A stretch of 63,195 nucleotides of DNA, filler included. It is 4 parts of 4 records of this genome, joined end to end, with 100 filler letters (N's around TTAATTAATTAA, not from the genome) between each part and the next. Parts side by side here need not be neighbours in the genome. Positions count along the whole stretch, not along the records: positions 15,148 to 46,404 come from SRR20825006_1156; 3 more parts are not named here. One strand, written 5' to 3'. This document shows positions 3,088 through 33,697 of the stretch, piece by piece (position 1 is the stretch's first letter; every line of letters begins with the position of its first letter). Both the position numbers and the translations under genes were made by a program. The notes under the pieces are model-generated. The model had not been told where the DNA came from. It was given only the letters and a program-made list of their open reading frames with translations, and searched no databases.

Positions 3088-3108
3088 GAATTTATTCGCA
3101 ACTAACCA

Positions 3109-3549: not shown

Positions 3550-3738
3550 GCCAAATCTTAAAATATTGTGCTAGAAAAAAGGTTTTTAAAATAGTGTTTT
3601 AAAACAGTCAAAGATTGTGCTAAACCATGTTTTATGACCAGGATGTACCATACATAAGATATTTTAGCGTTTAATCTATTATTTTTCCATCAGCCTCCCC
3701 TCCCCTCTAATTTCGTAGACGAGACACTATAATTACAT

Positions 3739-4164
3739 TTGGGGATGAAAATAACTTCTAAAAAGAAGACCGTAGTGGTACGCGAGTACCAGCTGGAGGT
3801 AGGGACCGTACAGGTTTATCAAAATTACATGGTTGCTTCCTTCAACGAGGGCGCCACAATTACATTGGAAAGAACATATCAAATCATCGGAATATCAGAG
3901 ATTCACTTTAGAGACCGAGATTTTGGCTATATCAGCTTAAGAAAAAACTCCTACGCAATCGACCCCACCGTTTACAACTACCTTAGAGGTCTTGATAACC
4001 TAAAGGCCTTTGCCATAGTTTCCAAAAAGGAGATAGACATGCATAATTTCAATATTGAAAAAATGTTCTATAAAAAGCCCATGGAATTCTTTATTGAGTT
4101 TGATAACGCCCTGGCATGGGTCCAAAAAAGACTTAAGATCAATATAGGGGACAAAAAATCCTAA
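3739..4164 (+). CDS. STAS/SEC14 (SpoIIAA-like) domain protein
   Basis: 141-aa ORF with YISLRKNSYAIDP, AFAIVS and FDNALAWV, typical of flavobacterial SpoIIAA-like proteins. The start may be the ATG at 3745. Confidence 0.6.
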   Translation: MGMKITSKKKTVVVREYQLEVGTVQVYQNYMVASFNEGATITLERTYQIIGISEIHFRDRDFGYISLRKNSYAIDPTVYNYLRGLDNLKAFAIVSKKEIDMHNFNIEKMFYKKPMEFFIEFDNALAWVQKRLKINIGDKKS

Positions 4165-5696: not shown

Positions 5697-5764
5697 TCAG
5701 CAATAAAAAATGGTTATTTGTGATATTTTCGCAAAAAACAACACCAATGATTTGATGAAGCACA

Positions 5765-5772
5765 CAAAAGTA
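5765..5772 (-). promoter_or_regulatory. Bacteroidota -7 promoter element for nnr
   Basis: TACTTTTG on the minus strand, 68 nt upstream of the nnr ATG. Confidence 0.55.
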
Positions 5773-5835
5773 CTACTTTTATCATCTCATTATAGGGCAA
5801 TGCAGATAAATCAAACGAATATTAACTTTATTTTG

Positions 5836-5889
5836 ATGAATCCTTTTTCATCTACTTTCACTATTACTACTACCACCCCTTTGGGGTAA
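5836..5889 (+). CDS. Putative thr operon leader peptide MNPFSSTFTITTTTPLG
   Basis: 17-codon ORF with 6 Thr and 1 Ile codons clustered (TFTITTTT). It ends 65 nt upstream of thrA. Confidence 0.75.
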   Translation: MNPFSSTFTITTTTPLG

Positions 5890-5954
5890 TCTGCTATATA
5901 TAATTCCGTCCGTTTTTTCAATCTATTTTCAATTTTTCACAACAATATTTTATC

Positions 5955-8399: not shown

Positions 8400-8402
8400 A
8401 CG

Positions 8403-9326
8403 ATGGAAAAAATTAAAGTATTCTGCCCGGCAACCATAGCCAACGTATCCTGCGGGTTCGATGTTTTGGGCTTGGCCTTGGATTCCGTCGGTGACGAGAT
8501 GACCGTTCGAAAAACTACAGAAAAAGGCATTCGCATCACCAAAATATTGGGGCAAGACCTTCCTCTTGAAACCGAAAACAATGTAGCCGGGGTAGCAGGT
8601 CTGGCCCTATTGGCCAAAAGCAGCTACCAAGGTGGTTTTGAAATCGAAATCGACAAGCGCATCAAACCGGGAAGTGGTATCGGCAGCAGTGCCGCCAGTT
8701 CCACGGGGGCCGTTTGGGCCATGAACGAGCTTTTGGGCAAACCATTTTCTAATTTAGAATTGGTGGAATTTGCCATGCAGGGAGAAAAATTGGCCAGTGA
8801 TGTGGCCCATGCCGATAATGTGGCCCCAGCAATTTATGGGGGCTTCACTTTGGTTAGGAGTTACGAGCCGCTTGACATTATCCCGATACCAACACCATCG
8901 GAACTGTATGCCACGGTAATCCATCCACAAATCGAGATAAAGACCTCGGATTCCCGAAAAATTTTGAAGACCACCATTTCCATGCAACAAGGCATTCGGC
9001 AATGGGGAAATTTGGGCGGACTTGTCGCAGGGCTATTCCAAAACGACTACGATTTGATCGGGCGCTCGTTGCACGACCATATTGTGGAGCCCATCCGGTC
9101 CATTTTGATTCCTGCTTTTGACGATATCAAAGCAAATGCCATAAAAGCAGGGGCTCTGGGAAGTGGAATCTCAGGTTCCGGACCATCCATTTTTGCATTG
9201 AGCAGAGGAGAAGAAACTGCAAAAAAAGTGGCGGAGTCCATGAAAGAAACATATCAAAACATTGGAGTGGATTTTGATATCCATGTTTCCAAAGTGAATA
9301 GCCAAGGCGTAAAGAAAATTGCTTAA
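8403..9326 (+). CDS. thrB: Homoserine kinase
   Basis: PATIANVSCGFD, GHMP motif KPGSGIGSSAA, HADNVAP and SGSGPS; lies within the thr operon. Confidence 0.95.
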   Translation: MEKIKVFCPATIANVSCGFDVLGLALDSVGDEMTVRKTTEKGIRITKILGQDLPLETENNVAGVAGLALLAKSSYQGGFEIEIDKRIKPGSGIGSSAASSTGAVWAMNELLGKPFSNLELVEFAMQGEKLASDVAHADNVAPAIYGGFTLVRSYEPLDIIPIPTPSELYATVIHPQIEIKTSDSRKILKTTISMQQGIRQWGNLGGLVAGLFQNDYDLIGRSLHDHIVEPIRSILIPAFDDIKANAIKAGALGSGISGSGPSIFALSRGEETAKKVAESMKETYQNIGVDFDIHVSKVNSQGVKKIA

Positions 9327-9330
9327 ATCC

Positions 9331-10626
9331 ATGAAATTCTACAGTCTAAATAACCAAAATATTCAAGCTACCTTCAAAGAGGCGGTCATTGCAGGAATAG
9401 CTCCTGATAAAGGACTTTATTTTCCAGAAAGTATCATACCGCTTCCTGCTGATTTTTTCGAGAATATTGAAAAACTATCCAACCACGAAATAGCCTTCCA
9501 AGCTATTCATCAATTTGTGAGCGAGGACATTCCAGACGAAGCTTTAAAAGACATTATCGCCAATACGTTGGATTTTGATTTTCCCGTAGTCGAAATCGAA
9601 GAAAATGTGGCCACTTTGGAACTTTTTCATGGTCCTACAATGGCCTTTAAAGATGTTGGGGCTCGTTTTATGGCCAACTGTCTTGGATACTTTTCACAAG
9701 GAGAAAAACAGGATGTTACCGTACTTGTTGCTACATCTGGGGATACTGGTGGTGCCGTTGCCAATGGCTTTTTGGGGGTTGATGGCGTAAAAGTGGTCAT
9801 TCTCTACCCTAGCGGAAAGGTAAGCGAGATCCAAGAAAAACAATTGACCACGCTTGGACTAAATATTGAAGCCATGGAAGTTGATGGCGTTTTTGATGAT
9901 TGCCAACGTATGGTGAAGACAGCTTTTCTGGACACCGAAATTACCGACCACAAAAAACTGACCTCGGCCAACAGCATCAATGTTGCAAGGTGGTTGCCAC
10001 AGTTGTTCTACTTTTTATTCGCTTACAAACAAGCGAAACCAAAAGGAAAGGAAATTGTCTTTTCCGTACCATCGGGAAATTTTGGAAACATTTGTGCGGG
10101 GATGGTCGCCCAAAAATTGGGCATGCCCGTCAAACACTTCGTGGCCTCCACCAATGTGAACGATGTGGTACCAAAGTTCATGGAAAGCGGGGTTTACGAA
10201 CCCATGCCATCCGTGGCAACCATTTCTAATGCCATGGATGTGGGGGACCCCAGTAATTTCGTCCGCATCAGACATTTGTATCAAGATGATTTGGAGACGC
10301 TGCAAAAAAGTCTTTCCTCCTACTCCTTTACAGATGAAAACACCAAAGCAATCATGAAAGAGGTGTATTCCAAAACTGGCTACGTGATGGATCCCCATGG
10401 TGCCGTCGGTTATCTTGGACTGAAGGAATATCAGAAATCCAACCCGAATACCTTTGGTATTTTCTTGGAAACCGCCCATCCTGTGAAATTTTTGGATGTT
10501 GTGCAGGACACCTTGGAAATCAGCCCAAAGATTCCTCCCCAAATCATGAAAGTGATGGACAAAGAGAAAAAATCATATAAAATATCATCTTACGAAGAGT
10601 TAAAACAATTTCTTCTTGATGATTAA
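9331..10626 (+). CDS. thrC: Threonine synthase
   Basis: PLP-lysine motif FHGPTMAFKD, plus ATSGDTG, SANSIN, PSGNFGN and TAHPVKF. Confidence 0.96.
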   Translation: MKFYSLNNQNIQATFKEAVIAGIAPDKGLYFPESIIPLPADFFENIEKLSNHEIAFQAIHQFVSEDIPDEALKDIIANTLDFDFPVVEIEENVATLELFHGPTMAFKDVGARFMANCLGYFSQGEKQDVTVLVATSGDTGGAVANGFLGVDGVKVVILYPSGKVSEIQEKQLTTLGLNIEAMEVDGVFDDCQRMVKTAFLDTEITDHKKLTSANSINVARWLPQLFYFLFAYKQAKPKGKEIVFSVPSGNFGNICAGMVAQKLGMPVKHFVASTNVNDVVPKFMESGVYEPMPSVATISNAMDVGDPSNFVRIRHLYQDDLETLQKSLSSYSFTDENTKAIMKEVYSKTGYVMDPHGAVGYLGLKEYQKSNPNTFGIFLETAHPVKFLDVVQDTLEISPKIPPQIMKVMDKEKKSYKISSYEELKQFLLDD

Positions 10627-12239
10627 TCCAACTTGGGCAGTTTAAAACTGTCCAAGGGACTGGGTTGTTTCATTATTTTTTCGATTTCCTCAGCCTTTCG
10701 CGGTGCCATCCCTGAAAGATTGACGGGACCATTTTCAGTAATCAAGATATCATCTTCGATCCTAACGGCGATGCCCCACCATTTTTCATCGCAATCACTG
10801 TTTTCAGGAATATAGATTCCGGGCTCTACGGTGATAACCTGGTTAGGTTTGAAAGTTTGATAAGTCCCAGGGTCGTGCACATCCAATCCCAAATAATGGG
10901 ATGTCCCGTGCGGAAAATAGGTCCTGGCCTCTTTGGCGTCCTTGATAATGCCTAAATCCATCAATCCCTTTGTCACCACTTGCAAGGCAGCATTGTGCGG
11001 CTCACGAAAGGAAGCACCGACCACACTTGCGGCAATGCCCGCTTCCTGCGCATTGTAAACGATATCGTAAATGGCCTTTTGCTCTGGAGAGAATTTTCCA
11101 TTGGCCGGGATGGTACGGGTCACATCGGCCGTATAACCATGGTATTCCGCTCCCAAGTCCATCAAAACCAAATCGTCGCCGACCTTGGTTTTATTATTTT
11201 CAATATAGTGAAGAATACAGCCATTGTGTCCGCCACCTACAATGGATGGGTAGCCTTCGTATTCGGCACCATATCTTTTATAAACGTATTCGTGCACTCC
11301 TTGGATCTCGGTTTCTGACATATTGGGGTGCATGGCCTTCATCACCTCAATTTGGCCAACCGCAGAAATTTCAATGGCCTTTTTCAACAGCTTCATTTCC
11401 TCTGGGGTCTTATCTTGGCGTAATTCTGCCATTACCTTTGGTAAAATACTGGAATCCAAATTGGTGGAACGTTGAATCACCAGCACCTTATTCTTGATTT
11501 CATCACGGATTTCATCATTATTGGCCTCTACAAAATCGTTTAAGATATCATCCTCTTGCAATTCTGGGTAACGCTCCATATACCGCTTTATGGTTTCCGC
11601 TACCTCACCACTGTTCTCAGAGTTTGCAGTTGCTATTCGTTTATAAAGGCTATTCCGTGTGGGATTATAATCCGAAGGGTAATTCGCCTTTATCTTAAAG
11701 GTTTTGATAAGATCAAATAAATCCGCTTTTCCGGATTTATCCCGATAATCATTCTGGAAATCCACAAATGAAACATTATCAAAGGAAGTAAAATCCAAGG
11801 GGAAGTTTTCAAATTCACTTCCATTGTAGACCATATCGAATCCCAATTGTTCCTTCACTCCTTCTACACCCAAGCGTTTTCCTGTCCATTGCTCTGCTCG
11901 CGCATCTCTTTCCTGTACATAGAAAATCTCATTGAAAGTATTGCCTGAAGCATCGGTCTGCTCTTCGGAAAAAATAACCAAGACTGCATTGGGCTCCTTA
12001 TAGCCTGTCAGGTAATAAAAATTGGGGTCTTGATGATACACATAATCAACATCATTGGCCCTATTTCGTTCGGCATTGGCAAAGAGGACCACAGCTGTAT
12101 TTGTGGGCAATTTTTTCCTAACAGCATCTCTTCTTTCCTTATGAAAATCGGCGGGCAAGTAGTCCGTTGGCAAATTCTGTGAAATTGCCATTGCCCCCAC
12201 CAACAAAGCGGAGAAAAGGCTCAATATAAATTTTGACAT
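10623..12239 (-). CDS. Xaa-Pro aminopeptidase (M24B) with a probable signal peptide
   Basis: AMP_N domain (QDPNFYYLTG) and metal ligands in DLGAEY, ADVTRT, HYLGLDVHD, TVEPGIY and VRIEDD. Hydrophobic N-terminus MSKFILSLFSALLVGAMA. Confidence 0.9.
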   Translation of the reverse strand: MSKFILSLFSALLVGAMAISQNLPTDYLPADFHKERRDAVRKKLPTNTAVVLFANAERNRANDVDYVYHQDPNFYYLTGYKEPNAVLVIFSEEQTDASGNTFNEIFYVQERDARAEQWTGKRLGVEGVKEQLGFDMVYNGSEFENFPLDFTSFDNVSFVDFQNDYRDKSGKADLFDLIKTFKIKANYPSDYNPTRNSLYKRIATANSENSGEVAETIKRYMERYPELQEDDILNDFVEANNDEIRDEIKNKVLVIQRSTNLDSSILPKVMAELRQDKTPEEMKLLKKAIEISAVGQIEVMKAMHPNMSETEIQGVHEYVYKRYGAEYEGYPSIVGGGHNGCILHYIENNKTKVGDDLVLMDLGAEYHGYTADVTRTIPANGKFSPEQKAIYDIVYNAQEAGIAASVVGASFREPHNAALQVVTKGLMDLGIIKDAKEARTYFPHGTSHYLGLDVHDPGTYQTFKPNQVITVEPGIYIPENSDCDEKWWGIAVRIEDDILITENGPVNLSGMAPRKAEEIEKIMKQPSPLDSFKLPKLD

Positions 12240-12350
12240 GCTTTTATTTTTTTTCAAAATACGAATTTTGGACATATAATGAGACGCTTGTTGATTCAGT
12301 TTTAGGAAAATCATAATATCCAAAAATAAGCGTATCCCTAATTAATTACA

Positions 12351-12358
12351 TAAATTTG
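12351..12358 (+). promoter_or_regulatory. Bacteroidota -7 promoter element for gcvT
   Basis: TAAATTTG, 21 nt upstream of the ATG at 12380. Confidence 0.65.
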
Positions 12359-12379
12359 CCAATCTTAAAAATAGAGTCA

Positions 12380-13468
12380 ATGAAAAATACTGCCCTTACC
12401 AAAACACATGAGGCCCTTGGGGCCAAAATGGTACCTTTTGCCGGTTATAATATGCCTGTTTCCTATGAAGGTGTGAATATTGAGCATGAAACCGTCCGCA
12501 AGGCGGTAGGTGTGTTCGATGTGTCCCACATGGGCGAGTTTTTGATAGAGGGCCCAAAAGCTTTGGAGCTGATTCAAAAGGTATCCACCAACGATGCTTC
12601 CAAATTGGAGATAGGTAAAGCGCAGTATAGCTGTTTGACCAACGAAACGGGGGGTATCGTAGACGATTTGATTATTTATATGATCAAGGACGAAACCTAT
12701 CTTTTGGTGGTAAATGCATCCAACATTGACAAGGACTGGCAACATATTTCCAAGTACAACGAAAGTATAGGTGCCGATATGCGCAACCTATCCGATGATT
12801 ATTCCCTATTGGCCATCCAAGGACCAAAAGCTGTGGAGGCCATGCAATCTTTGACTTCTGTGGATTTGTCGTCCATCAAGTTCTATAATTTTGTAGTAGG
12901 AGATTTTGCAGGAATCGAACACGTCATCATTTCCGCCACCGGATACACGGGTTCTGGCGGTTTTGAGATTTATTGTAAGAATTCAGAAGTACAACAGGTG
13001 TGGGACAAGGTTTTGGAAGCAGGTACTGATTTTGGCATCAAACCCATCGGTTTGGCCGCTCGTGACACTTTACGTTTGGAAATGGGGTATTGCCTTTACG
13101 GAAACGATATCGACGATACTACTTCCCCTTTTGAAGCTGGACTGGGCTGGATTACCAAGTTCACCAAAGATTTTGTGAACAGCGACAATCTCTCCAAAGA
13201 AAAGGCGGAAGGATCTAAACGTAAACTGGTCGCCTTCCAAATGGAAGAACGTGGGATTCCCAGAGCTGGTTACCCCATCTTGGATGCCGATGGCAACGAA
13301 ATCGGGAAAGTAACCTCAGGGACTATGTCTCCTTCGCTTTCCAAAGGAATTGGTTTGGGTTATGTGACTACAGCTCACTCCAAATTGGACACCCCGATTT
13401 TTATTCAAATCCGAATCAACAAAGTTCCTGCAACCGTAGTCAAATTACCATTCTACAAAAATACCTAG
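12380..13468 (+). CDS. gcvT: Glycine cleavage system aminomethyltransferase T
   Basis: [17 protein letters not shown] and [18 protein letters not shown]. Confidence 0.96.
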
Positions 13469-13475
13469 GTAGCCT

Positions 13476-14294
13476 TTGGATAAAAAAAAGATATTGATAT
13501 TAGGTGCAAGTGGATTTGTGGGCAATGCCATATACAAAGAACTCTGCTCCTATTTTGATACCTACGGTACTTACTATTCCAACCGCTCTTTTGCAAAAAA
13601 CAAGCAATTTATTCGGTACGACTTAGAGGAGGATGATATTTTTCAGGTACTCGAACAGGTTAGGCCCGATGTCATCGTCTCTGCTCTCCGCGGAAATTTT
13701 CCTGCACAGATACAGGCTCATCAACATTTGATGGAATATTTGATAAAAACCGATGCCAAGTTATACTTTATTTCATCGGCCAATGTATTCGATGCCTACA
13801 GCAAATTTCCATCCTATGAGCAGGACAAAACATTGTCGTTAAGCGTTTACGGTCGTCTAAAAATCAAAATTGAGAACATGATGATGCGGTTGCCCAAGGA
13901 AAAGACCGCCATTCTCAGAATCCCCATGGTTTTTGGAAACTTCTCGCCCAGAATCAAGGAAATCAAGGAAAATATAGAGAACAACGAACCTATTGAAGTG
14001 TTTCCTAACCTCATCATCAATGTGACCAACGACGATAGGCTTACCCAACAAATCCACTACCTCATCAATCGGAACAAAACGGGCATTCATCATTTAGGCA
14101 GCAGCGACCTTATCCAGCATGAGGAATTCATCAAAGAGGTTATTGCACATTTGGGAAATTATCATCCAATCTACAAAAGGGTCTACACCACCAACGAAGA
14201 CCGATACTTGGCCGCTTTGCCCAAGGATAACTTACTTCCTAAAAATTTACGAGTCAGCTGTCAGGAGATAATCGACCATCATCTTCCCGTATAG
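13476..14294 (+). CDS. RmlD-like (extended SDR) sugar-nucleotide-binding protein
   Basis: GASGFVG Rossmann motif, FISSANVFD and a YGRLK (YxxxK) motif. Confidence 0.75.
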   Translation: MDKKKILILGASGFVGNAIYKELCSYFDTYGTYYSNRSFAKNKQFIRYDLEEDDIFQVLEQVRPDVIVSALRGNFPAQIQAHQHLMEYLIKTDAKLYFISSANVFDAYSKFPSYEQDKTLSLSVYGRLKIKIENMMMRLPKEKTAILRIPMVFGNFSPRIKEIKENIENNEPIEVFPNLIINVTNDDRLTQQIHYLINRNKTGIHHLGSSDLIQHEEFIKEVIAHLGNYHPIYKRVYTTNEDRYLAALPKDNLLPKNLRVSCQEIIDHHLPV

Positions 14295-14340
14295 TTTTCT
14301 TTTCAGTGTTAAATTGGTTATCTTCTGAAAAAACATATTT

Positions 14341-14622
14341 ATGAAGAAGATGAACACCAATGAAATTGAAAAAGCCCTTGAAACATTATCTGGCTGGTCC
14401 CTAAAAGAGGAAATGATCGTTAAGTCCTTCACTTTTGAGGATTTCAAGGAGACGTTTTCCAAAATGACCCATATCGCGTTTGAATGTGAAAAACAAAATC
14501 ACCATCCGGAGTGGGAAAATGTGTACAACAGCCTCACTATAAAACTGAGCACTCACGATGCCGATGGGGTTACACAAAAAGACATTGACCTCGCTACATC
14601 CATTGAAAAAATTATTGGCTAG
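14341..14622 (+). CDS. Pterin-4-alpha-carbinolamine dehydratase
   Basis: NHHPEW and LSTHDADGVTQKD motifs. Confidence 0.92.
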   Translation: MKKMNTNEIEKALETLSGWSLKEEMIVKSFTFEDFKETFSKMTHIAFECEKQNHHPEWENVYNSLTIKLSTHDADGVTQKDIDLATSIEKIIG

Positions 14623-14661
14623 CTTGAAAGATAATCATCTTGACAAAGGTGCATTTTTTGC

Positions 14662-14669
14662 TAAATTTG
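14662..14669 (+). promoter_or_regulatory. Bacteroidota -7 promoter element for yebC
   Basis: TAAATTTG with a TTG (-33-like) at 14640-14642. Confidence 0.65.
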
Positions 14670-14693
14670 CCAGCATCCAGAATTTAAGAATAT

Positions 14694-15047
14694 ATGGGAA
14701 GAGCGTTCGAATTTAGAAAAGCACGGAAAATGAAGCGTTGGGCCGCCATGTCCAAAGCATTTACCCGAATTGGGAAAGATATTGTAATGGCTGTTAAGGA
14801 AGGTGGCCCGGATCCAGATGCCAATTCCAAGCTACGTGCCGTAATTCAGAATGCTAAGGCGGTCAACATGCCCAAGGACAATATTGAGCGCGCTATTAAG
14901 AGAGCTTCTGACAAAAACCAAGGGGATTACAAAGAGGTGTTGTTTGAAGGTTACGCCCCCCACGGAATCGCCATTTTGATAGAGACCGCAACCGATAACA
15001 ATACGCGTACGGTGGCGAACATCCGTAGTTATTTTAATAAATGTAAT
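14694..15047 (+). CDS. yebC: YebC/PmpR (TACO1) family protein, 3'-truncated by the gap
   Basis: [32 protein letters not shown] and TDNNTRT. Confidence 0.92.
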
Positions 15048-15147
15048 NNNNNNNNNNNNNNNNNNNNNNNNNNNNNNNNNNNNNNNNNNNNTTAATTAAT
15101 TAANNNNNNNNNNNNNNNNNNNNNNNNNNNNNNNNNNNNNNNNNNNN
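15048..15147. other. Artificial contig linker
   Basis: 100 nt of N with a central TTAATTAATTAA (stops in all frames). GC content and taxon change across it. Confidence 0.98.
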
Positions 15148-20889: not shown

Positions 20890-23862
20890 ATGGATGAATG
20901 CGCGCAACTGGATCTTTCCGCGCTGAGAAAGGCGCCTGTCTTCCCTTTTGAGCAGTCACTTTATGAAACTGCCCTTGGCGAAATTGTTGAAGCTGCGAAG
21001 GCCCAAGCGCTTCCTGATGTTTTAAGCAGAACCAACGGTTTTCTGCCACAGTTTCTAGCCACAGTATTTTCACTTTCGCCTTATCTTTTCGACTGCTTCC
21101 GAGCATCTCCGATGCTTCTGGATGAAATTGACAAGCCACTTCTGCCGCAATTGGAGAGGCAGATCGAGATTGCGCGCAATGCGTGGCGACCAGATGACAA
21201 GACAACGCCAAAAACCGACAGCGCGATTATGCAAACGCTTCGGCTGGCCAAGCGTCGGGTTGCGTTTTTAACCGCACTGGCGGATCTGGCTGGCCTTTGC
21301 CAGGCCGAGCAGACCACGGATGTTTTAAGTCGCTTTGCTGAAGCTTGTGTCTCTGCGACCGTGGATCATCTGTTGTTCTCTGCCGGAGCTGATGGCCACC
21401 TTGTGCTTGGCGATCAGGAACACCCCTCGCAACGCTCCGGCGTCGTGGTTCTGGGCATGGGTAAGCTTGGCGCATGCGAACTCAACTATTCCTCCGATAT
21501 TGATATCGTGGTTTTTTTTGAACCTGAAGCGCCGATGGTCAAAGACAGCGACCAGGTGCGCTCTCTGTTTCCACGCCTGATGCGCCGTCTGGTTCATATT
21601 CTGCAGGAGCGTACCGGCGACGGCTATGTCTTCCGCACTGATTTGCGTTTACGGCCTGATCCAGGATCAACAGCCCTTGCGATACCGGTGGAAGCCGCTC
21701 TTCTCTATTATGAGAGCAGGGGGCAAAACTGGGAGCGTGCTGCCTATATCAAGGCTCGGCCAATTGCCGGTGATTTTGAAGCCGGCGAAGCTTTCATGCG
21801 TGAAATGATCCCTTTCATTTTTCGCAAATACCTTGATTATGCAGCGATCTCGGACATTCATTCCATCAAGCGTCAGATACATGCCCACAAGGGGTTTGGT
21901 CTCGTCGCTGTCAACGGTCACAACGTCAAACTGGGTCGCGGCGGAATTCGTGAGATTGAGTTTTTCGCCCAGACACAGCAGCTTATTGCCGGCGGAAGAA
22001 TGCCGCATCTGCGCTGCCGTCGCACTGTGGATGCGCTGCAGGCTTTGCTTGAAGCCCGCTGGATCGATGCGGAAACCTGTGACCAACTAACGACGGCCTA
22101 CTGGTTTCTGCGCAATGTCGAGCACCGCATCCAGATGGTGCGTGATGAGCAAACCCATATTCTGCCTGATGAGGATGCCGAGTTGCTGCGGATCGCACGG
22201 ATGAGCGGCTATGAGACCTGTGAGACGTTCTCTTCCGCTCTGCTGGATACTTTGCATACAGTCGAAACATGCTATGCGCGGCTGTTCGAGCGTGAGCATA
22301 CCCTTTCCGGCGAGACGGGTAATCTGGTCTTTACCGGAGAAGATGATGATCCGGGTACTCTGGAGACGCTGAAGAAGCTGGGGTTTGAAAGACCGACGGA
22401 TATCGCCCGGATTGTGCGAACCTGGCATTACGGTCGTTATCGCTCCACACAGTCAACCAAAGCGCGTCAGCGTCTGACCGAAATTATGCCGGACCTGCTC
22501 AAGGCTTTCGGTGAAAGCCGCCGGGCGGATGAAGCTCTTTCGCGGTTCGACCGGTTTCTTGCCGGTCTGCCTGCCGGAGTCCAGCTTTTCTCGCTTCTGA
22601 AAAATAATATCGGTATGCTTCGGCTGATCGTCGAGATCATGTCAGCCGCACCGCGTCTTTCGGAAATCATTGCTGACAGGGCACATATTGTAGACGGTAT
22701 GCTGGACCCGGCATTGATGACCGAATTACCGACCCGCGATTATCTTTCACGGCGTCTGGATGCCTTTATGAGCGGCGCCGTGCTCTATGAAGAAAGGCTG
22801 GACCGGTTACGTATTTTTGCCGCTGAACAGCGTTTCCTGATCGGTATCCGGCTGATGACGGGCGCGATCAATGGTTTTGCCGCAGGCAGGGCCTTCACGA
22901 CGCTTGCTTCTCTTGTGATTGGTGAAGCGCTTGATGGCGTACTGGATGAGATGAAGTCAGTGCATGGCGAGGCAGAGGGGCAGCGTGTTGCTGTTCTGGC
23001 GATGGGCAAGCTCGGCAGTGCGGAACTGACCGCAGGCTCTGACGTTGATATCATCGTGCTCTATGACTGTTCCGATCCGCTTGGTCAAACGTCCGGTCCC
23101 AGACAACTGGAGGTGCCGCGTTATTTCGCGCGCCTGACACAACGGCTTGTTGCTGCACTTTCCGCACCGACGGCTGAGGGTGTCCTTTACGAAGTTGACA
23201 TGCGTTTGAGACCCTCAGGAAACGCCGGACCGTTGGCAACACGGTTATCCGCTTTTGAAAAATACCAAAAGAAAGATGCCTGGACCTGGGAGCACATGGC
23301 TCTGAGCCGGGCGCATCCATTATGCGGTGATCAATCGCTGATGGCTGATACCTGCGCGATTATCCGGGAGATCATGGTTTTGCCGAGGGATCCTCGGAAG
23401 CTGGCGGAGGATATCTCTGCCATGCGGATGCGCATTGAACGTGACAAGCCAGCCAAAAGTACATGGGATCTGAAACTTATTCCTGGCGGACTGGTCGATA
23501 TCGAGTTTCTGGCTCAGTATTGTCATCTTGCCGCTCCGGAGGCAGCAAAATCGGCGCCGGATAACGCGCTTTCAACCGATGATGTTCTGGCCTTTTGTGG
23601 TGCGCAGATCATGGAAACCGGAGATATTGAGGCGTGTCGCAAGGCCCTTGCACTTTATACCGATATCGCGCAATTGACACGGGCCTGTCTGACGGAGGGG
23701 TTTGATCCGGAAAATGCGCCGGCCGGTCTTCTGGAGCGGGTCTGCCGTCTGGGGGATTGTCCCGATGCCAAGGCGCTGGAAGCGCTGATCCTTGATATGT
23801 CCACCGGGATACGACGCATTTTCGAGCGTGTATTGCCAGCGTCGAATGCCCCCGACGCTTGA
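20890..23862 (+). CDS. glnE: Glutamine synthetase adenylyltransferase/adenylyl-removing enzyme
   Basis: Two nucleotidyltransferase halves: MGKLGACELNYSSDID and MGKLGSAELTAGSDVD; RTDLRLRPD and EVDMRLRPSG. Confidence 0.96.
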   Translation: MDECAQLDLSALRKAPVFPFEQSLYETALGEIVEAAKAQALPDVLSRTNGFLPQFLATVFSLSPYLFDCFRASPMLLDEIDKPLLPQLERQIEIARNAWRPDDKTTPKTDSAIMQTLRLAKRRVAFLTALADLAGLCQAEQTTDVLSRFAEACVSATVDHLLFSAGADGHLVLGDQEHPSQRSGVVVLGMGKLGACELNYSSDIDIVVFFEPEAPMVKDSDQVRSLFPRLMRRLVHILQERTGDGYVFRTDLRLRPDPGSTALAIPVEAALLYYESRGQNWERAAYIKARPIAGDFEAGEAFMREMIPFIFRKYLDYAAISDIHSIKRQIHAHKGFGLVAVNGHNVKLGRGGIREIEFFAQTQQLIAGGRMPHLRCRRTVDALQALLEARWIDAETCDQLTTAYWFLRNVEHRIQMVRDEQTHILPDEDAELLRIARMSGYETCETFSSALLDTLHTVETCYARLFEREHTLSGETGNLVFTGEDDDPGTLETLKKLGFERPTDIARIVRTWHYGRYRSTQSTKARQRLTEIMPDLLKAFGESRRADEALSRFDRFLAGLPAGVQLFSLLKNNIGMLRLIVEIMSAAPRLSEIIADRAHIVDGMLDPALMTELPTRDYLSRRLDAFMSGAVLYEERLDRLRIFAAEQRFLIGIRLMTGAINGFAAGRAFTTLASLVIGEALDGVLDEMKSVHGEAEGQRVAVLAMGKLGSAELTAGSDVDIIVLYDCSDPLGQTSGPRQLEVPRYFARLTQRLVAALSAPTAEGVLYEVDMRLRPSGNAGPLATRLSAFEKYQKKDAWTWEHMALSRAHPLCGDQSLMADTCAIIREIMVLPRDPRKLAEDISAMRMRIERDKPAKSTWDLKLIPGGLVDIEFLAQYCHLAAPEAAKSAPDNALSTDDVLAFCGAQIMETGDIEACRKALALYTDIAQLTRACLTEGFDPENAPAGLLERVCRLGDCPDAKALEALILDMSTGIRRIFERVLPASNAPDA

Positions 23863-23873
23863 TTCAAACGATT

Positions 23874-25736
23874 TCACCCGGCCGGGGAGCTGGTGGCTGA
23901 CCGACGCCGGATAACGCCGCCGGTTGCCTGGTCCTGGGCCATAGGAGTACTGGCTTCGAACGTTTCGGCCAGTGCCTTCAAGGCATTGCCGCCGTTGTTA
24001 ATGCATTGTGCGTATTCAGCGACCTTGGTCGCGGCAGGCGAATCACAGTCAGTTTCAGCGAGCAGAAGTTCTGAAAAGCCGAGAACGGCCGTAAGTCCGT
24101 TCCGCAATTCGGCAGAATGTCGTGCAAGGGAGTCTTTATCGAAACCTGTGCTTACGGCTGTATGGCGGTTGCGCAGTACGAAATTCAGCGAGGAGGCCTC
24201 CTGTTCCAGCTTGCGACGCGAGGCAGCCAGAGCGTTTACCTTCTCGCGCAGCCGAACCTGTTCAGCCTGCAGCCGCATCTGAGTGGTTTTGAATTCCGTG
24301 ATATCCGTGCCAATCGCCAGCGTCTCGCCGGTCTCAATTCTGGTTTCAGAAACTTTCAGCCAACGTCCGTCAGCTGTCTTGATTTCGCAGGCAGTGGCGC
24401 CATTGCACTTACGACGAACCAAACGCTGCCCGTGATCGCCTGCTTCTTCGATCTCACTGCGGTCAATGCTCCCGGTCGAAGCTTCCAATGCATGAGCTTC
24501 ACAAAAAGCCTTGTTGGCGGTGAGGAGCTTTCCGTTTGCTTTCCAGACGGCCAGGGCATGTGGCAAAGCATCAAAAGCAGACTGTAAACAACCGGCGGAA
24601 CGCAGTGCGTTTTGCTCGCGGCGATGACTGTCGCAAGCACGAATTGCCGCGCCTGAAAGCGTCATAATGCCGTTTCTTGAGGCTGCGACGGCGCGAATCT
24701 CGAATCGTGCATAAAGACCGTCATGTTGTTTCAGGCGCAGATTATGCTGCACAAGTCCTTCAGCGGAGGGGCGCATATGCCGGGCCAGGCCACTCCGATC
24801 ATCCGGGTGAACCCGGGTAAGGAGCTGACGGTAGGAATAATACCCCACTTTTGCTCCGTCACCCAAAACAGCAGCTGCCGAACGATCCAGAAAGGCACTC
24901 TTTTCGGTCGGTGAAAATGCCCAGAGCCCGGTTTCACCATTTGCCAACATAAGCCCGCGCGTCTCGGCTTCTGCCTCCATCGCCTCGGCTATGGACCCGT
25001 TACGGGCCAGTTGCGTATAATAGGCGTAGAGGACGACCAGCAGCAAAACGGCAGTGGCGGCGAACAACGTTACATTGAGATTGAACTCAGCGCGCCAGAG
25101 ATTGTGCATTTGCTGAAGGGAGTGAAGCGCAATAACGAGACCGCCATCATCTCCGACCAACCGTGGCACAACCTGATAGGCCGTCCCGCCAATCTTGATT
25201 TCGCCCGTATCGTTGGTTCTGCTGAATTCATGCGGCACCATCAATCCGGGAAAAGCTGCCGAAAGCGAACGCCCGATCAATGACTGGCTCTTGCCGGTTG
25301 CCGCGAAAACGATCCCTGAAGTGTCCACCAGAACAAGATCGGTATCGGAACCCATGCCGGTTTGCGACAGCGTGTTCTCCAGCGCGCTTGTCGCGCTCTT
25401 CCGGTCAGCATCGGTAAAAAGGGAAGGTTGCTCATCCAGTGCTGAAACAGCCAGTGTCGCGACCGATTCGGTGGTCTGTCGAACAGCGGATTCCATCCGG
25501 CTGTGGCTGGCAAGAAGCGAAAAACCACGCGCCAGTGCAACGCATATCAGAAACATGATGATGAGAACGGGGATTGCCTTTCTGAGTACCATTTCGACGC
25601 GGTTCTTTTCCAGCGTCACCGGCAGTCGCCATGCAGCTACATGCCGAGCCTCTCCAGCAAAAACCTGCTCCCCGCCAAATTGAGAGCGCAACTTCCCGTT
25701 GACTGTGGGCAGATCCCACATGTCCGATCTCTTCAT
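23874..25736 (-). CDS. pleC: PleC-like membrane PAS protein with a degenerate DHp helix and no HATPase domain (pseudokinase)
   Basis: Occupies the Rhizobiaceae pleC position between glnE and pepN. PleC-like segments IPVLIIMFL, NVTLFA..LLVVLYAYYTQ, two PAS domains and DGRWLKVSE..GTDIT. The H-box reads ARHSAELRNGLTAVLGFSE and the ORF stops about 80 codons later. Confidence 0.8.
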   Translation of the reverse strand: MKRSDMWDLPTVNGKLRSQFGGEQVFAGEARHVAAWRLPVTLEKNRVEMVLRKAIPVLIIMFLICVALARGFSLLASHSRMESAVRQTTESVATLAVSALDEQPSLFTDADRKSATSALENTLSQTGMGSDTDLVLVDTSGIVFAATGKSQSLIGRSLSAAFPGLMVPHEFSRTNDTGEIKIGGTAYQVVPRLVGDDGGLVIALHSLQQMHNLWRAEFNLNVTLFAATAVLLLVVLYAYYTQLARNGSIAEAMEAEAETRGLMLANGETGLWAFSPTEKSAFLDRSAAAVLGDGAKVGYYSYRQLLTRVHPDDRSGLARHMRPSAEGLVQHNLRLKQHDGLYARFEIRAVAASRNGIMTLSGAAIRACDSHRREQNALRSAGCLQSAFDALPHALAVWKANGKLLTANKAFCEAHALEASTGSIDRSEIEEAGDHGQRLVRRKCNGATACEIKTADGRWLKVSETRIETGETLAIGTDITEFKTTQMRLQAEQVRLREKVNALAASRRKLEQEASSLNFVLRNRHTAVSTGFDKDSLARHSAELRNGLTAVLGFSELLLAETDCDSPAATKVAEYAQCINNGGNALKALAETFEASTPMAQDQATGGVIRRRSATSSPAG

Positions 25737-25754
25737 TTGTTTGGTTCCCTCGTG

Positions 25755-25852
25755 TGATTCGCGAAGCCGCTCTTGCGAATCTACCCTAGTGAATCAAACG
25801 TGATTCGCCTTGTCCAGAGCTAGATGGAAAGCTTTTGTTAACCATATATCAA
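25755..25852 (-). promoter_or_regulatory. Cell-cycle-type promoter of the pleC-like gene: four GANTC sites plus a CtrA-like box
   Basis: GANTC at 25756, 25777, 25791 and 25802 (two in TGATTCG context). TTAA-CCATATA-TCAA at 25838-25852. Confidence 0.6.
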
Positions 25853-25963
25853 AAAAGGATTTTTTGTAATTTTAGAATTTGGTGATTTAGTGCTTTCGCC
25901 GCTTTTAGGCAGCGAAAGCGCAGAGTGCAAGGACTCAGAACGGTTGCATTTGCAAGTCGCGTT

Positions 25964-28612
25964 TCACTTTTTCAACATGCGATCGATGATGTCCCGCAGG
26001 TTGCGCGACAGGTCGCTATGGCCCGCTATGCGTTCAAGTTCACTCAGGGCCTTTTTGCGCCGCCCCGGCTCCAGAGCGGCGAAAGAGCGCATCGCGGTCA
26101 TCAATCGGGCCGTCAATGTCGGGTTTCGTTTGTCCGAGGCCAGAATGAAATTGGCAAAAAAGCTGTAGGCGGCGCCGTCCGGTCTGTTGAACCCCGTCGG
26201 GTTGGATGAGGCAAAGGCACCTATAAGTGCACGCACACGGTTTGGATTGCCGATATCAAAGGCGCTGTCGGACATCAGGCTTTTCACGCGTTCGAGTGCC
26301 TGTTCGCCTGCAACAGTCGCTTGCGTGGTAAACCACTTGTCCAGAACCAGAGGTTCGTTGGCAAAGCGTTCGCGGTAGTCCGCAAGCGCAGCTTTGGTTT
26401 CTTCAGCTTCAGTGAACTGATGCGCGAGAATGCGCAGGGCTGCAATCCGATCAGTCATGTTGGATGCCTGATCATAGGCCGCTTTCGCCGGTCCGGGATC
26501 TCCTGTTGCTGCCGCCAGGTAGGAAAGCGCCGTGTTTCGCAAGGCACGCTTTCCGGCACTTGCCGCATCTGCGTTGAACGGGATTTCATCGCCCGGTGTC
26601 TCGGCAAGTGTTGCGAAAGCCTTCTGGCCTGCCTTTGCCACTTCGTCTCGGACTGCATTTCGTGCGCGGTGTATGGCGTCCGGATCAATGGCCTCACCGA
26701 TCTTACGCCCGATATCCAGCTCAGAAGGTAGCGTTAGCGCCAGTGCCCGAAAGGCCGGTTCAAGCGTGTCGTCTTCGGCAAAGCTTGTCAGTGTCTCGGT
26801 CAATGCCGTCTCAACGGGCATCGGTTCTCCGGACTGGCTGGCCCGTGTCGCTGCTGCCAGTGCGTCGAGCGCCAGTGTGTTGACAGCATCCCAACGGGCA
26901 ACCAGGTCACTTTCGTGTCGGGCAATCCGTACCAGATCTTCCTTTGGAACCTCGTATTCGACCTTAACAGGTGCCGAAAAGTCGCGATTGAGCGATATCG
27001 CGGGTTTCGCCCCAATCCCCTCAAATATGAAAGTTTGGCGTTCCTTGGTCAGGTGCAGAACATCGCCACTGCGTTCTCCGCCGCTCACGTTGGTTGGCGT
27101 CATGTCATCGCCATTGGGGCCGATCAGCCCGGTCCTGAGTGGAATGTGCAGTGGTTTTTTGTTTGGTTGTCCTGGCGTCGCCGGTGTGGATTGCTCAAGC
27201 GTCAGAGAGAGTGTGCCAGTGTTTTCATCATATTCGCCGGATGCGTTAATTTCCGGCGTTCCGGCCTGATGATACCAGAGTGAGAAATGCGTCAGGTCGC
27301 GTTCCGTCGCGTCTTCAAAGCATTTCAGATAGTCTTCGATGGTGACAGCGCCACCATCATGGCGCTCAAAATAAAGGTCAAGCCCCTTGCGAAAGTTCTC
27401 CTGGCCCAAAAGCGTGGCAATCATCCGGGAAACCTCGGAACCCTTCTCATAAACCGTTGTCGTGTAGAAGTTATCGATCTCCAGATACTGGGTTGGCCGG
27501 ACGGGGTGTGCCAGCGGACCGGAATCTTCGGGAAACTGGTGGGCGCGAAGGAATTTTACTTCTTCCACGCGGGTAACCGGACGCGAGCGCTGATCAGCGG
27601 AAAATTCGTGCTCACGGTAAACCGTCAGCCCTTCCTTCAGACTCAGCTGAAACCAATCGCGGCAGGTGATACGGTTGCCAGTCCAGTTGTGGAAGTACTC
27701 GTGTGCGACAACAGCTTCGATGCGTCCATAGTCATCGTCGGTTGCGGTTTCCGGGTCAGCGAGAATCAGCCTGTCATTGAAGATGTTGAGGCCTTTGTTT
27801 TCCATCGCTCCCATGTTGAAGTCGGAGACGGCCACGATCATGAAAATGTCGAGGTCGTATTCGCGACCGAAGCGCTCCTCATCCCATTTCATCGCGCGTT
27901 TTAGAGAGTCCATGGCGTATCCCGCCCGGTCTTCCTTGCCGTGTTCGACATAAAGTTTCAGCGTAACATCGCGGCCGGACATGGTCATAAAGCGGTCTTC
28001 GATCACGCCCAGATCTCCGGCGACAAGGGCGAAGAGGTAGGCAGGTTTTGGGAAAGGATCATGCCATTTGGCCATATGGCGCCCGTCGCCAAGGTCTTTT
28101 TCTTCAATCAGATTGCCGTTTGAAAGCAGAAGCGGGTTGGTGACCGCATCGGCAATAATGGTCACAGTGTAGACGGCCAGCACGTCAGGCCGGTCGTAGA
28201 AATAGGAAATTCGCCGAAAACCTTCCGCCTCGCATTGCGTGGAGTAGATGCCGTTGGTGCGATAAAGGCCGAGCAGCTGTGTGTTGGCTGACGGATTGAT
28301 CCGCGTTTTCACCGTCAGTGTGAATGCCTCATCGGCGGGCAGATCGTGAATGATAAGCTTGTCATGCCTCTGCTCATAACGTTCCGGCAGAAGGGGCTTG
28401 CCGTCCAGAGCCAGACCGGAAAGGGACAGTTGATCACCATCGAGCGCAAGCGGCGCCGTTTTGTCCGAGCCTTCGCGACGCCGAAATCTCATCTGGCTGC
28501 CCACCGTGGTCAGACTTTCACCGAGCTCGAAGTTCAGCTCGACTGTTTCCAGAATGAAATCGGTAGGCCGGTAGTCTTCCAGGTAAACCGTTCGGTCATC
28601 GTCAGCGCGCAT
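25964..28612 (-). CDS. pepN: Aminopeptidase N (M1)
   Basis: GAMENKGLN and HEYFH...LKEG zinc motif; YEKGSEV. Start at MRADDDRTVYLEDY with a GAGG RBS. Confidence 0.96.
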   Translation of the reverse strand: MRADDDRTVYLEDYRPTDFILETVELNFELGESLTTVGSQMRFRRREGSDKTAPLALDGDQLSLSGLALDGKPLLPERYEQRHDKLIIHDLPADEAFTLTVKTRINPSANTQLLGLYRTNGIYSTQCEAEGFRRISYFYDRPDVLAVYTVTIIADAVTNPLLLSNGNLIEEKDLGDGRHMAKWHDPFPKPAYLFALVAGDLGVIEDRFMTMSGRDVTLKLYVEHGKEDRAGYAMDSLKRAMKWDEERFGREYDLDIFMIVAVSDFNMGAMENKGLNIFNDRLILADPETATDDDYGRIEAVVAHEYFHNWTGNRITCRDWFQLSLKEGLTVYREHEFSADQRSRPVTRVEEVKFLRAHQFPEDSGPLAHPVRPTQYLEIDNFYTTTVYEKGSEVSRMIATLLGQENFRKGLDLYFERHDGGAVTIEDYLKCFEDATERDLTHFSLWYHQAGTPEINASGEYDENTGTLSLTLEQSTPATPGQPNKKPLHIPLRTGLIGPNGDDMTPTNVSGGERSGDVLHLTKERQTFIFEGIGAKPAISLNRDFSAPVKVEYEVPKEDLVRIARHESDLVARWDAVNTLALDALAAATRASQSGEPMPVETALTETLTSFAEDDTLEPAFRALALTLPSELDIGRKIGEAIDPDAIHRARNAVRDEVAKAGQKAFATLAETPGDEIPFNADAASAGKRALRNTALSYLAAATGDPGPAKAAYDQASNMTDRIAALRILAHQFTEAEETKAALADYRERFANEPLVLDKWFTTQATVAGEQALERVKSLMSDSAFDIGNPNRVRALIGAFASSNPTGFNRPDGAAYSFFANFILASDKRNPTLTARLMTAMRSFAALEPGRRKKALSELERIAGHSDLSRNLRDIIDRMLKK

Positions 28613-28814
28613 GTTGATCCTCATTGTTTGCAGGGCAGGGTGCCCACTCAACTCAACCCATCAGGGAGGTCTTATTCGGGGCATAACAAAACGCCGATCG
28701 CCGCGGAAAGCAAATTGTTCCGTGATTTTTGAGCAAGGCCTGCCAATTGTGAAAAAATGCGCGTAAGAAAGCTCCTGTGCCTCTCGCCACACCCCGATTT
28801 GACAAAGTTTTCTC

Positions 28815-32533: not shown

Positions 32534-33697
32534 ATGATGATGATGACGTTGGAAAAGCCGCATATGCGAGAACAGGCTCCTGCGGTTCGGCAGGCCATAG
32601 ACACACTCCCCGAATCGGTGCTTCTGACTGATAGCGCAGGTCTGGTTGAGCTTGCGAATGATGCAGCGCTTCATCTGTTCGACGCCGAAGCGTCTGAACT
32701 TGTTGGCAAGCCGCTTGCGCAGTGGTTTTCACAAGAGGATGCGGCTGCGCTCGACACGGTTATGCTCAATGTCAGTGACAGTGAACCGGGATGCCGTCTG
32801 GAAGAGATTTCTGCAGCTATAGATCGTCCGCCGATGAAGCGGGTTCGGCTTTCAATAGCGAGAATGCGCCATCGCAAGGGGCTGTGTGTTGTCGTTCACC
32901 GGGTCTTCGCCAGTGCAAATATGCATGGAAATACCAGGTCTCCTGTGAAAACAGAAACGACAGGATTTTCACAATTCGAGAGTTTCAGCTCGGGAAACCA
33001 GCCTGGCGTGAAGATGGTCCAGTCCGGTTTGCCGGCCGCTGATCAGTTTAAGGTCGAGCAGAAACGGCGACATGCGCATATGCCCAGGGTTCTCGATACA
33101 TCCGAAGACTGGCTTGCTCCGAAAGTGGCATCTGAGGTTGAATTGGTTTCAGGTCGTCAGCCGGATGGGGCGGCCAGTCCCGTCAAATCGTTCAATCGTG
33201 ATTTGTACGCGGTTTTTGAAGGTGAGCGCGAACGTAAGCAATGGGCTGACGACGAGCCGGAGGTTTCGCCGGTCGCCTGCCTCGAACGCTCCGTTTCAGG
33301 TCGCCGTCAGCAGGCCGTTTCTGAAACCGTACGCATTGTGATGACAGTGGACGAGGGGATAGCGGATACTCCTCTTGATGAAGAGCATCTGTTCCGGCTG
33401 TTTGATACCTTGGTGGAGCGTCTGATCGCAGTAAGTCCGCCTTACTGTGACGCGAAAATTGAGATGTCTCGTGCAGAATCAAGTGGGTTTACGGTACGCT
33501 TCAACGATATCGGTCGTGGTTTGACCGAAGATGAATTGCGTATTCTGTCAGACCAACCGGATTTGGCGGTGTTGCCGTCGCATACGCTTTTGCTGGAAGC
33601 TCAGCGTTTCGCCTCAAATCTGGGTATCGACCTGAATTACCGGACATCTGTTGAGGCCGGGACATCGATTGTGGTTGTCTGGAGGAATTTGCACTGA
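32534..33697 (+). CDS. PAS plus degenerate HATPase_c protein, PdhS/CbrA-like remnant without an H-box
   Basis: N-terminal PAS (AIDTLPESVLLTDSAGLVELANDAALHLF). The C-terminal fold keeps G1 (NDIGRGLT) and the terminal GT, but not the N-box or G2 box. Confidence 0.65.
   Translation: MMMMTLEKPHMREQAPAVRQAIDTLPESVLLTDSAGLVELANDAALHLFDAEASELVGKPLAQWFSQEDAAALDTVMLNVSDSEPGCRLEEISAAIDRPPMKRVRLSIARMRHRKGLCVVVHRVFASANMHGNTRSPVKTETTGFSQFESFSSGNQPGVKMVQSGLPAADQFKVEQKRRHAHMPRVLDTSEDWLAPKVASEVELVSGRQPDGAASPVKSFNRDLYAVFEGERERKQWADDEPEVSPVACLERSVSGRRQQAVSETVRIVMTVDEGIADTPLDEEHLFRLFDTLVERLIAVSPPYCDAKIEMSRAESSGFTVRFNDIGRGLTEDELRILSDQPDLAVLPSHTLLLEAQRFASNLGIDLNYRTSVEAGTSIVVVWRNLH

Follow-up and report, generated by a model that had tools for sequence, protein, structure and literature searches.

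Closest described systems

PleC is a central switch of the alphaproteobacterial DivK-CtrA cell-cycle circuit. Regulators of the RetS type modulate a second kinase by DHp-DHp contacts, DivL does not need its ATPase domain to work, and PsmA of Streptomyces is said to be a histidine pseudokinase. Here we describe P0001, a 620-amino-acid (aa) PleC orthologue encoded on the minus strand of the window (the whole stretch of DNA that was analyzed, 63,195 nucleotides of joined contigs), which has neither the phosphoacceptor histidine nor the ATP-binding (CA) domain. We consider it rather probable that P0001 is a selected, kinase-dead remnant of PleC that acts non-catalytically, and that the CA domain and then the histidine were lost in the Martelella group. 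Histidine pseudokinases are already known, and active kinases that lack a CA domain have been produced in the laboratory. Neither a natural PleC pseudokinase nor a natural, clade-wide PleC without a catalytic core, at three stages of reduction, turned up in the literature searched, judged by titles and the beginnings of abstracts.

DivL, the Tyr-for-His pseudokinase, resembles P0001 in that it is derived from a histidine kinase, belongs to the DivK/CtrA circuit and has given up autophosphorylation; it binds partners (PMC4211667). The loss of the histidine is common to both. DivL keeps its CA domain and is a separate, ancient paralogue, whereas the loss described here is recent, hits PleC itself and removes the whole CA domain and then, in one subclade, the DHp domain. 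ChrS_CA-fs of Corynebacterium glutamicum is a CA-frameshift pseudokinase whose phenotype is unlike that of the deletion and which forms heterodimers with HrrS (PMC9491836). It too is a histidine kinase that has lost its CA domain, but it is laboratory-evolved, belongs to another kinase family, keeps its histidine and is not evolutionarily conserved. The PleC H610A mutant of Caulobacter carries the identical His-to-Ala substitution at the phosphoacceptor and is reported to be without kinase or phosphatase activity (PMC3510030). H610A is however an engineered allele with an intact CA domain, while P0001 also lacks the CA domain and the proline at His+5.

With PleC of the Rhizobiaceae (Sinorhizobium meliloti SMc02369, Agrobacterium tumefaciens) and of Caulobacter crescentus, P0001 shares the position between pepN and glnE, the N-terminal architecture and a conserved leader with GANTC sites. 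It differs from intact PleC in lacking the CA domain, in having Ala for His and no Pro at His+5, in a cytoplasmic half that evolves 5-10 times faster, and in its very long branch.

The kinase core is missing

The open reading frame (ORF) of P0001 runs uninterrupted through 23874..25736 on the minus strand from an ATG start, as seen in the ORF listing and the translation. Its H-box reads LARHSAELRNGLTAVLGFSE. In an alignment with 16 intact PleC proteins, which without exception read SHELRTPLNAI, Ala542 stands in the phosphoacceptor column (codon GCC at 24111-24113), Asn546 at His+4, and Gly547 replaces the proline at His+5. The clade to which P0001 belongs (below) is represented by 16 aligned rows, or about 13 distinct proteins because the loci L001-L003 duplicate P0002, P0003 and P0011. 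In 11 CA-less rows aligned with the 16 intact ones, the phosphoacceptor column holds A eight times and G (P0009), S (P0123) and H (P0122) once each; it is H in 16/16 intact rows. Proline at His+5 occurs in 0/11 CA-less rows against 16/16 intact ones.

A model's earlier reading of this DNA (the sequence-only reading) had placed Ala at the phosphoacceptor position, with the same codon, and the alignment and the codon check agree. It had also counted the Asn for Thr in the RTP motif as a departure. The Asn is indeed there, but it is peculiar to the window; Thr is kept in all relatives, and T and N are the two usual residues at His+4 (PMC3510030).

Pfam gave no HATPase_c match in P0001. All of its PAS matches were sub-threshold, and HisKA scored 17.6 bits against a cut-off of 26.9, over residues 543-591, beginning just past the His position. 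S. meliloti PleC (P0089), taken as a control, scored 77.6 bits for HisKA and 96.8 bits for HATPase_c. The NCBIfam model PdhS matches P0001 over the DHp only, with 17.6 bits against a cut-off of 2000. HATPase_c was found in 0/16 clade rows; of the 11 that retain the HisKA segment, 9 gave a weak HisKA match. PAS with a weak HisKA and no HATPase_c is the profile that the sequence-only reading had foreseen. Without a phosphoacceptor His and without HATPase_c, P0001 does not have the make-up of a functional HisKA-type histidine kinase.

There is no room for a CA domain because the stop codon (23874-23876) lies only 11 nt from the glnE stop at 23862; that the ORF ends after the DHp at this distance had also been read correctly. 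Each of the four CA-less loci has a stop-to-stop gap to glnE of 3-15 nt, where 72 intact loci have a median of 6, and therefore the CA-coding DNA is cleanly gone. Going by its sequence, with both the CA domain and the phosphoacceptor His gone, P0001 is unable to autophosphorylate.

The losses are shared by a clade

The ATP-binding domain is absent in every close relative (Martelella species and further relatives). The closest is L001, Martelella mediterranea strain 175.2 (NZ_SMAR01000008.1), a record of 54% GC whose protein has 622 aa and 66% identity; P0002 (65% identity) is the L001 protein started further downstream. At 42-48% identity to P0001 follow proteins of 588-621 aa from M. mediterranea, M. 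radicis, M. lutilitoris, M. endophytica, M. sp. AD-3 and M. mangrovi. Shorter forms of 542-547 aa, from M. soudanensis, M. sp. FLE1502 and M. limonii, are also without the DHp segment. An exhaustive search of 1.84 billion representatives of 50% clusters added P0122 (630 aa, 39%) and fragments, among them P0123, P0127, P0130 and P0135.

In trees of 70 and of 30 rows built on shared columns, a branch with SH-aLRT 100 sets the CA-less forms apart, although these were quick LG+G4 searches with midpoint rooting only and no bootstrap. About 2 substitutions per site separate them from intact PleC. P0122 is sister to the other 13 CA-less proteins (support 99) and keeps the phosphoacceptor His (THAMRTEL), with Glu+1 and Pro+5 gone. 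The DHp-less forms are a nested subclade. With the root on the intact side, we infer that the CA domain was lost first, that His was then replaced by Ala, Gly or Ser, and that the DHp was deleted last, in one Martelella subclade. On the best reading of these sequences, the Martelella group, the window's organism included, descends from an ancestor in which the CA domain had been lost.

All the deletions keep the frame, and the tail that they leave is conserved. R610 is invariant in 16/16 rows, the DHp-less forms included, and the tail motif G-x-[VIL]-[VIM]-R-[RK], which 3-9 residues separate from the C-terminus, is also present in P0122, P0123, P0127, P0130 and P0135. Given its MAFFT placement in alignment A1, this short motif may be a relic of the CA-domain strand that follows the N-box. 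It may also resemble the basic C-terminal tags that proteases recognize.

We considered other matches of about 530-640 aa as further CA-less lineages and rejected them, as they have the canonical SHELRTPLNAI and abrupt or garbled ends. P0100, P0137, P0145, P0227 and P0242 read as contig-end or frameshift fragments. For instance, P0100 (532 aa) is a Sinorhizobium-like PleC with nonsense sequence past the signalling helix, probably because of a frameshift, whether from a sequencing error or in a recent pseudogene, and is not a conserved short form. P0191 (612 aa) is a distantly related PleC-like protein whose H-box is canonical; it stops shortly past DHp helix 2, in ...GGRTVRA, and may be either a fragment or a CA-less form that arose independently.

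The proteins flanking the gene in L001 are 84-94% identical to those of the window; with M. mangrovi and M. limonii, L001 shares only about 73-76% identity in glnE and pepN. P0003, also named M. mediterranea, sits in the core Martelella group. Because of these identities and the place of P0003, strain 175.2 and the window's organism may form a separate species group.

The gene occupies the pleC locus

The gene has two immediate neighbors:

20890..23862, plus strand: glnE, convergent neighbor (NF010706, 1407 bits)
25964..28651, minus strand: pepN, co-directional upstream neighbor (TIGR02414, 1193.8 bits)

The plus strand of the window carries a ccmF fragment, degP, an OmpR-type response regulator (RR), a histidine kinase (HK) and glnE; pepN is on the minus strand. 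We scanned a sample of at least 80 loci, one genome per species, comprising 77 with an intact pleC and three CA-less ones (L001-L003). Among the loci listed, pepN flanks the pleC position in 80/80 and glnE in 78/80, and the order pepN-pleC-glnE-HK-RR-degP is common to them and the window. The gene at this position encodes about 760-850 aa in the 77 intact loci, which come from Rhizobium, Agrobacterium, Neorhizobium, Shinella, Sinorhizobium, Ciceribacter and other Rhizobiales. In an annotated S. meliloti record the PleC match lies between pepN and the HK/RR pair, with ccmF beyond. These counts and this record bear out the claim that ccm-degP-RR/HK-glnE-pleC-pepN is the pleC locus. The S. meliloti record, L081 (CP090106.1), is a 3.72-Mb replicon titled pSymB in the plasmid collection, yet carries the chromosomal pleC locus; its PleC match is split into three pieces with no listed gene, and the gene table of the record is incomplete.

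The best matches of P0001 outside its own clade are proteins of 765-800 aa with 27-33% identity over about 90% of the length, many of them named PleC by their source. All of those listed have HATPase_c except P0068 and P0100. Among the matches listed and in the exhaustive cluster search, no paralogue family is closer to the CA-less clade than PleC. The gene is a vertically inherited positional orthologue of pleC, in line with what had been proposed from gene order, and the names of the best non-clade matches agree. Databases label the CA-less proteins variously as PleC, PAS domain protein or hypothetical protein. The pleC gene of S. meliloti, SMc02369, is essential (PMC4254191), as the sequence-only reading had it, though that of A. 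tumefaciens can be deleted (PMC3577659).

Domain architecture and predicted structure

The features of the gene are the following:

23874..25736, minus strand: coding sequence of P0001, a CA-less and His-less PleC orthologue (ORF, positional orthology, relatives)
25512..25583, minus strand: transmembrane (TM) helix 1, about residues 52-75 (AlphaFold2 and hydrophobic IPVLIIMFLICVALARGF; within the long helix 40-101; conserved as in intact PleC)
25092..25511, minus strand: periplasmic alpha/beta sensor domain, residues 76-215 (pLDDT mostly >90)
25008..25091, minus strand: TM helix 2, residues 216-243 (model helix 208-265)
24633..24941, minus strand: PAS-A, residues 266-368 (model strands and helices 272-367; Foldseek match to the tandem PAS of FixL)
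24300..24566, minus strand: PAS-B, residues 391-479, strongly relaxed (weak PAS_7, PAS_8 and PAS_4 matches; model 394-478)
24156..24299, minus strand: signalling helix or coiled coil, residues 480-527 (one 48-residue helix in the model)
24054..24134, minus strand: DHp helix 1, residues 535-561 (model helix, alignment columns, codons, weak HisKA match)
23949..24038, minus strand: DHp helix 2, residues 567-596 (model helix; EYAxxIxxGGxxL conserved with PleC)
23904..23915, minus strand: C-terminal V608-I-R-R611, in the clade-wide tail motif (alignment)

The AlphaFold2 model, made from an alignment of 70 sequences, has a mean pLDDT of 79.4 and a pTM of 0.43. It places in order TM1, the periplasmic domain, with an alpha/beta fold that spans about 105-206, TM2, PAS-A, PAS-B, a long helix, a two-helix DHp hairpin and a disordered tail. 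Foldseek against the PDB matched tandem-PAS sensors (FixL, E 4e-12) and a WalK model; the sequence of P0001 had no match among PDB chains at E <= 0.01. PAS_3 and PAS_PdeA match 12/16 clade rows, and PAS families overall 9-12/16. The TM-periplasmic-TM-tandem PAS architecture of the PleC group is thus present in P0001 by model, Foldseek and PAS matches. The same layout, a coiled coil included, had been described for the 620-aa ORF from the letters, and the ORF listing and AlphaFold2 agree with it. The block NLNVTLFAA...YAYY in TM2 is invariant across 70/70 aligned proteins, and the block RLQAEQxRLREKV of the signalling helix is conserved in the clade. A two-copy prediction of residues 480-620 scored 0.35 against 0.39 for the control. 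Three antisense ORFs within the gene (129, 156 and 162 aa) had no Pfam match.

Selective constraint differs between the two halves

In order to assess how the protein evolves, we compared CA-less pairs with intact PleC pairs matched by the identity of the flanking proteins GlnE and PepN. Percentages are protein identities:

Flank identity 85%: CA-less 66%; intact PleC pairs mean 88% (minimum 81)
Flank identity 73-74%: CA-less 42-46%; intact PleC pairs mean 67% (minimum 62)

The loss of identity is uneven along the protein. Between the window and L002, identity amounts to 36/70/42/82% in N-terminal peptide, TM1, periplasmic domain and TM2, against means of 32/59/42/78% in matched intact pairs. 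PAS-A has 53% against a matched intact mean of 69 (minimum 61), PAS-B 35% against 89%, the coil 52% against 81%, DHp helix 1 63% against 91% and DHp helix 2 43% against 85%. Helix 1 of the DHp is the best-conserved cytoplasmic segment and the most PleC-like.

We also compared nonsynonymous divergence (dN) between the window and L001 with that of four intact pairs of equal flank divergence:

N-terminal half: CA-less 0.19; intact 0.15-0.16
PAS-A: CA-less 0.19; intact 0.07-0.08
PAS-B: CA-less 0.30; intact 0.03-0.06
Coil: CA-less 0.25; intact 0.02-0.04
DHp: CA-less 0.28; intact 0.03

In PAS-B, coil and DHp, dN is 5-10 times higher than in intact PleC and still far below synonymous divergence (dS). 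Between CA-less loci dS is saturated (NG86 1.1-2.6), and the frame is open in all of them. The NG86 dN/dS is 0.12 for the window and L001 and 0.23-0.32 for other CA-less pairs, against 0.03-0.13 for flanking genes, but these values are rough because dS is saturated. What is conserved at the cytoplasmic end is the protein sequence; from locus to locus, the H-box helix and the tail are written with different synonymous codons.

The constraint on the periplasmic domain, both TM helices and the N-terminal peptide is therefore that of intact PleC. Now that no kinase core is left to drive, most but not all of the constraint on PAS-B, the signalling helix and the DHp has gone. The protein is kept by purifying selection and is no decaying pseudogene.

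The ancestral leader is retained

Upstream of the start codon, about 130 nt can be aligned between the window, L001-L003 and intact-pleC loci. The following elements were annotated:

25756..25845, minus strand: conserved leader before the start codon (alignment of the window, L001-L003 and four intact-pleC loci)
25756-25806, minus strand: four GANTC sites in the leader
25811-25817, minus strand: CTGGACA in the leader
25838-25845, minus strand: TTAACCAT motif in the leader

GANTC is the CcrM site. Under a strict anchor, 49/81 loci have 3-7 GANTC sites per 165 nt, against 0.25 expected when the loci are taken in their entirety. The TTAACCAT 8-mer, which we take to be a CtrA half-site, stands at -102 to -114 in the window, in 3/3 CA-less loci and in 28/77 intact loci, with 0.0085 expected per 430 nt. 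A perfect TTAA-N7-TTAA is found upstream of the gene in 6/77 intact loci and in neither the window nor L001-L003. The four GANTC sites build two invariant inverted repeats, GAATCA-N-TGATTC and GATTCG-N13-CGAATC; nothing supports an RNA structure in the leader because the arms never vary. Rfam gave no match at E <= 1 on 23000-26500, and a scan of 23600-26100 for consensus promoters and terminators gave nothing above the shuffled expectation.

In Caulobacter, the activity of PpleC needs its GANTC sites, and GcrA binding there is CcrM-dependent (PMC3667746). ChIP-seq of S. meliloti shows CtrA at the pleC promoter, but no measurable change in expression follows when CtrA is depleted (PMC4433202). 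As the ancestral leader with GANTC and TTAACCAT is intact, expression is probably still cell-cycle-linked.

Possible function

If P0001 is a kinase-dead remnant, it would be a membrane-anchored and presumably dimeric protein that works through protein contacts instead of phosphotransfer. The unchanged constraint on the periplasmic domain and the TM helices implies that the sensor half has a function beyond regulating a kinase core. The sensor/TM half and PAS-A might still serve an ancestral role that does not depend on the kinase, such as positioning or the binding of partners within the PodJ/PleC polarity module. The surviving DHp hairpin may dock DivK or PleD, or may pair with kinases of the DivJ/PdhS type as a decoy or modulator. 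Helix 1 is PleC-like in T/N at His+4 and in G and F/Y at +11/+12, with Asn changed to Thr at +7; we take +7, +8, +11 and +12 to be the partner-specificity positions. Pairing as in RetS is a possible mode of action, though RetS still has its kinase-like and receiver domains and shows no sequence relationship to P0001. The conserved short basic motif at the C-terminus would be a second candidate contact site. PleC without its HK domains still co-localizes with PodJ, for which PAS-AB is required (bioRxiv 10.1101/2021.07.20.452843).

We tentatively suggest, as a possibility that we hold with considerable doubt, that a conserved kinase-independent function of PleC resides in the N-terminal peptide, the TM helices and the periplasmic domain, that control of DivK has passed to PdhS-family kinases, and that the C-terminal motif is a new output or contact element.

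Several points weigh against a non-catalytic remnant. PAS-B, which is needed together with PAS-A for PodJ recruitment in Caulobacter (bioRxiv 10.1101/2021.07.20.452843), is the most relaxed domain of all, with 35-62% identity where matched intact pairs have 89-94%. One Martelella subclade keeps the gene but does without the DHp; docking through the DHp therefore cannot be the clade-wide function, which weakens the case for DivK binding through the DHp as a conserved function. The overall protein rate, 2-3 times that of intact PleC, also fits a slow loss of function. The comparison rests on four CA-less DNA loci only, the matched pairs are not phylogenetically independent, and the dN/dS values are rough. 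Both the partner and the non-catalytic role are what we infer, and TTAACCAT is a presumed CtrA half-site.

A genus-level lineage that keeps pleC without its catalytic core would indicate that the circuit can be rewired without PleC enzymology. If P0001 and its relatives are indeed selected remnants, the Martelella group is a natural separation-of-function experiment on PleC, with the sensor half kept under the ancestral cell-cycle promoter. The natural alleles that it offers, CA-less with His, CA-less without His and DHp-less, could be used to probe the PleC sensor half alone.

Alternative explanations

Isolated EnvZ DHp has phosphatase activity, and the main alternative is that P0001 has kept an enzymatic activity, as a DHp-only phosphatase of DivK~P for which neither the His nor the CA domain is required. 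We regard this as unlikely. In its favor, the T/N residue that is essential for HisKA phosphatases is kept, and in CrdS and EnvZ the His enhances phosphatase activity without being required (PMC3510030). The conservation of helix 1, described above, fits as well. On the other side, Caulobacter PleC H610A lost its phosphatase activity along with its kinase activity, and the Pro+5 that is gone from 11/11 rows is a residue whose alanine substitution strongly lowers CrdS phosphatase (PMC3510030). Moreover, DHp dN is about 9 times that of intact PleC, and one subclade deleted the DHp but kept the gene. Taken together, the features of the sequence argue against kinase activity and mostly against phosphatase activity.

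Somewhat less probable still is a sub-functionalized copy, with an intact pleC or a PdhS-type kinase elsewhere in the genome doing the job of PleC. Our view is limited to 63 kb of the assembly and about 20 kb per relative, and Rhizobiales have several PleC/DivJ homologues (PMC3577659). However, the gene is the positional orthologue, and among the 1.84 billion representatives no full-length protein is nearer to the clade than generic Rhizobiaceae PleC (the first intact match has 31% identity, E 1.1e-65), which argues against a recent duplicate. There was no Martelella-named full-length match among the matches listed (120 of 503). Nor was there a Martelella record among the 37 plasmid records with a PleC-like match (tblastn with S. 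meliloti PleC), although this is weak evidence since the collection may hold no Martelella plasmids.

A slowly decaying pseudogene that does nothing itself would account for the stepwise loss of output parts (CA, His and, in one subclade, DHp) and for a protein divergence 2-3 times faster than that of the flanking genes. We consider it quite improbable, given a frame of about 620 codons that is open in every relative despite saturated dS, a dN far below dS, an N-terminal half constrained as in intact PleC, in-frame deletions that left the conserved tail, and a conserved leader.

The sequence-only reading had allowed for a shifted phosphorylation site two residues upstream, and a phosphotransfer protein of the Hpt/ChpT type could use this residue, His540. 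It is present in the window and its nearest relative (L001/P0002) only, is missing from all Martelella forms and from P0009, P0122 and P0123, and at an offset of -2 would lie on a different helix face. No conserved His was found in the DHp of the clade, as it would be in a ChpT/Spo0B-type protein. The shifted site thus falls away as a conserved feature, and we give a phosphotransfer protein hardly any credence.

Least probable of all, to the point of being negligible, is an assembly or contig-end artefact: the window does concatenate four contigs through N44-TTAATTAATTAA-N44 linkers (15048-15147, 46405-46504 and 57878-57977), but the gene lies mid-contig in the second piece (15148-46404, 54% GC), with 8.7 kb to one end of the piece and 20.7 kb to the other, glnE comes next at a distance of 11 nt, and the identical truncated architecture is repeated in three independent assemblies (L001-L003) and seven Martelella-named protein records. 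The truncation is not an artefact because it is common to every close relative and the gene is mid-contig, and the sequence-only claim of a pseudokinase without His or CA domain holds for P0001.

Other observations in the window

The four pieces of the window have 42%, 54%, 55% and 64% GC, and the source may be a draft or binned assembly with more than one organism. The first piece (1-15047, 42% GC) encodes clpB, a BLUF protein, yjeF, a fused aspartokinase-homoserine dehydrogenase, thrB, thrC, pepP and gcvT. In gene content and GC it looks unlike the Martelella-like piece. At the first linker yebC is cut off, and the following piece starts inside ccmF. The contig piece of the pleC-like gene also encodes a PAS-only protein of 387 aa (32534-33697, plus strand) and a PAS-GGDEF-EAL protein (43536-46118, minus strand).

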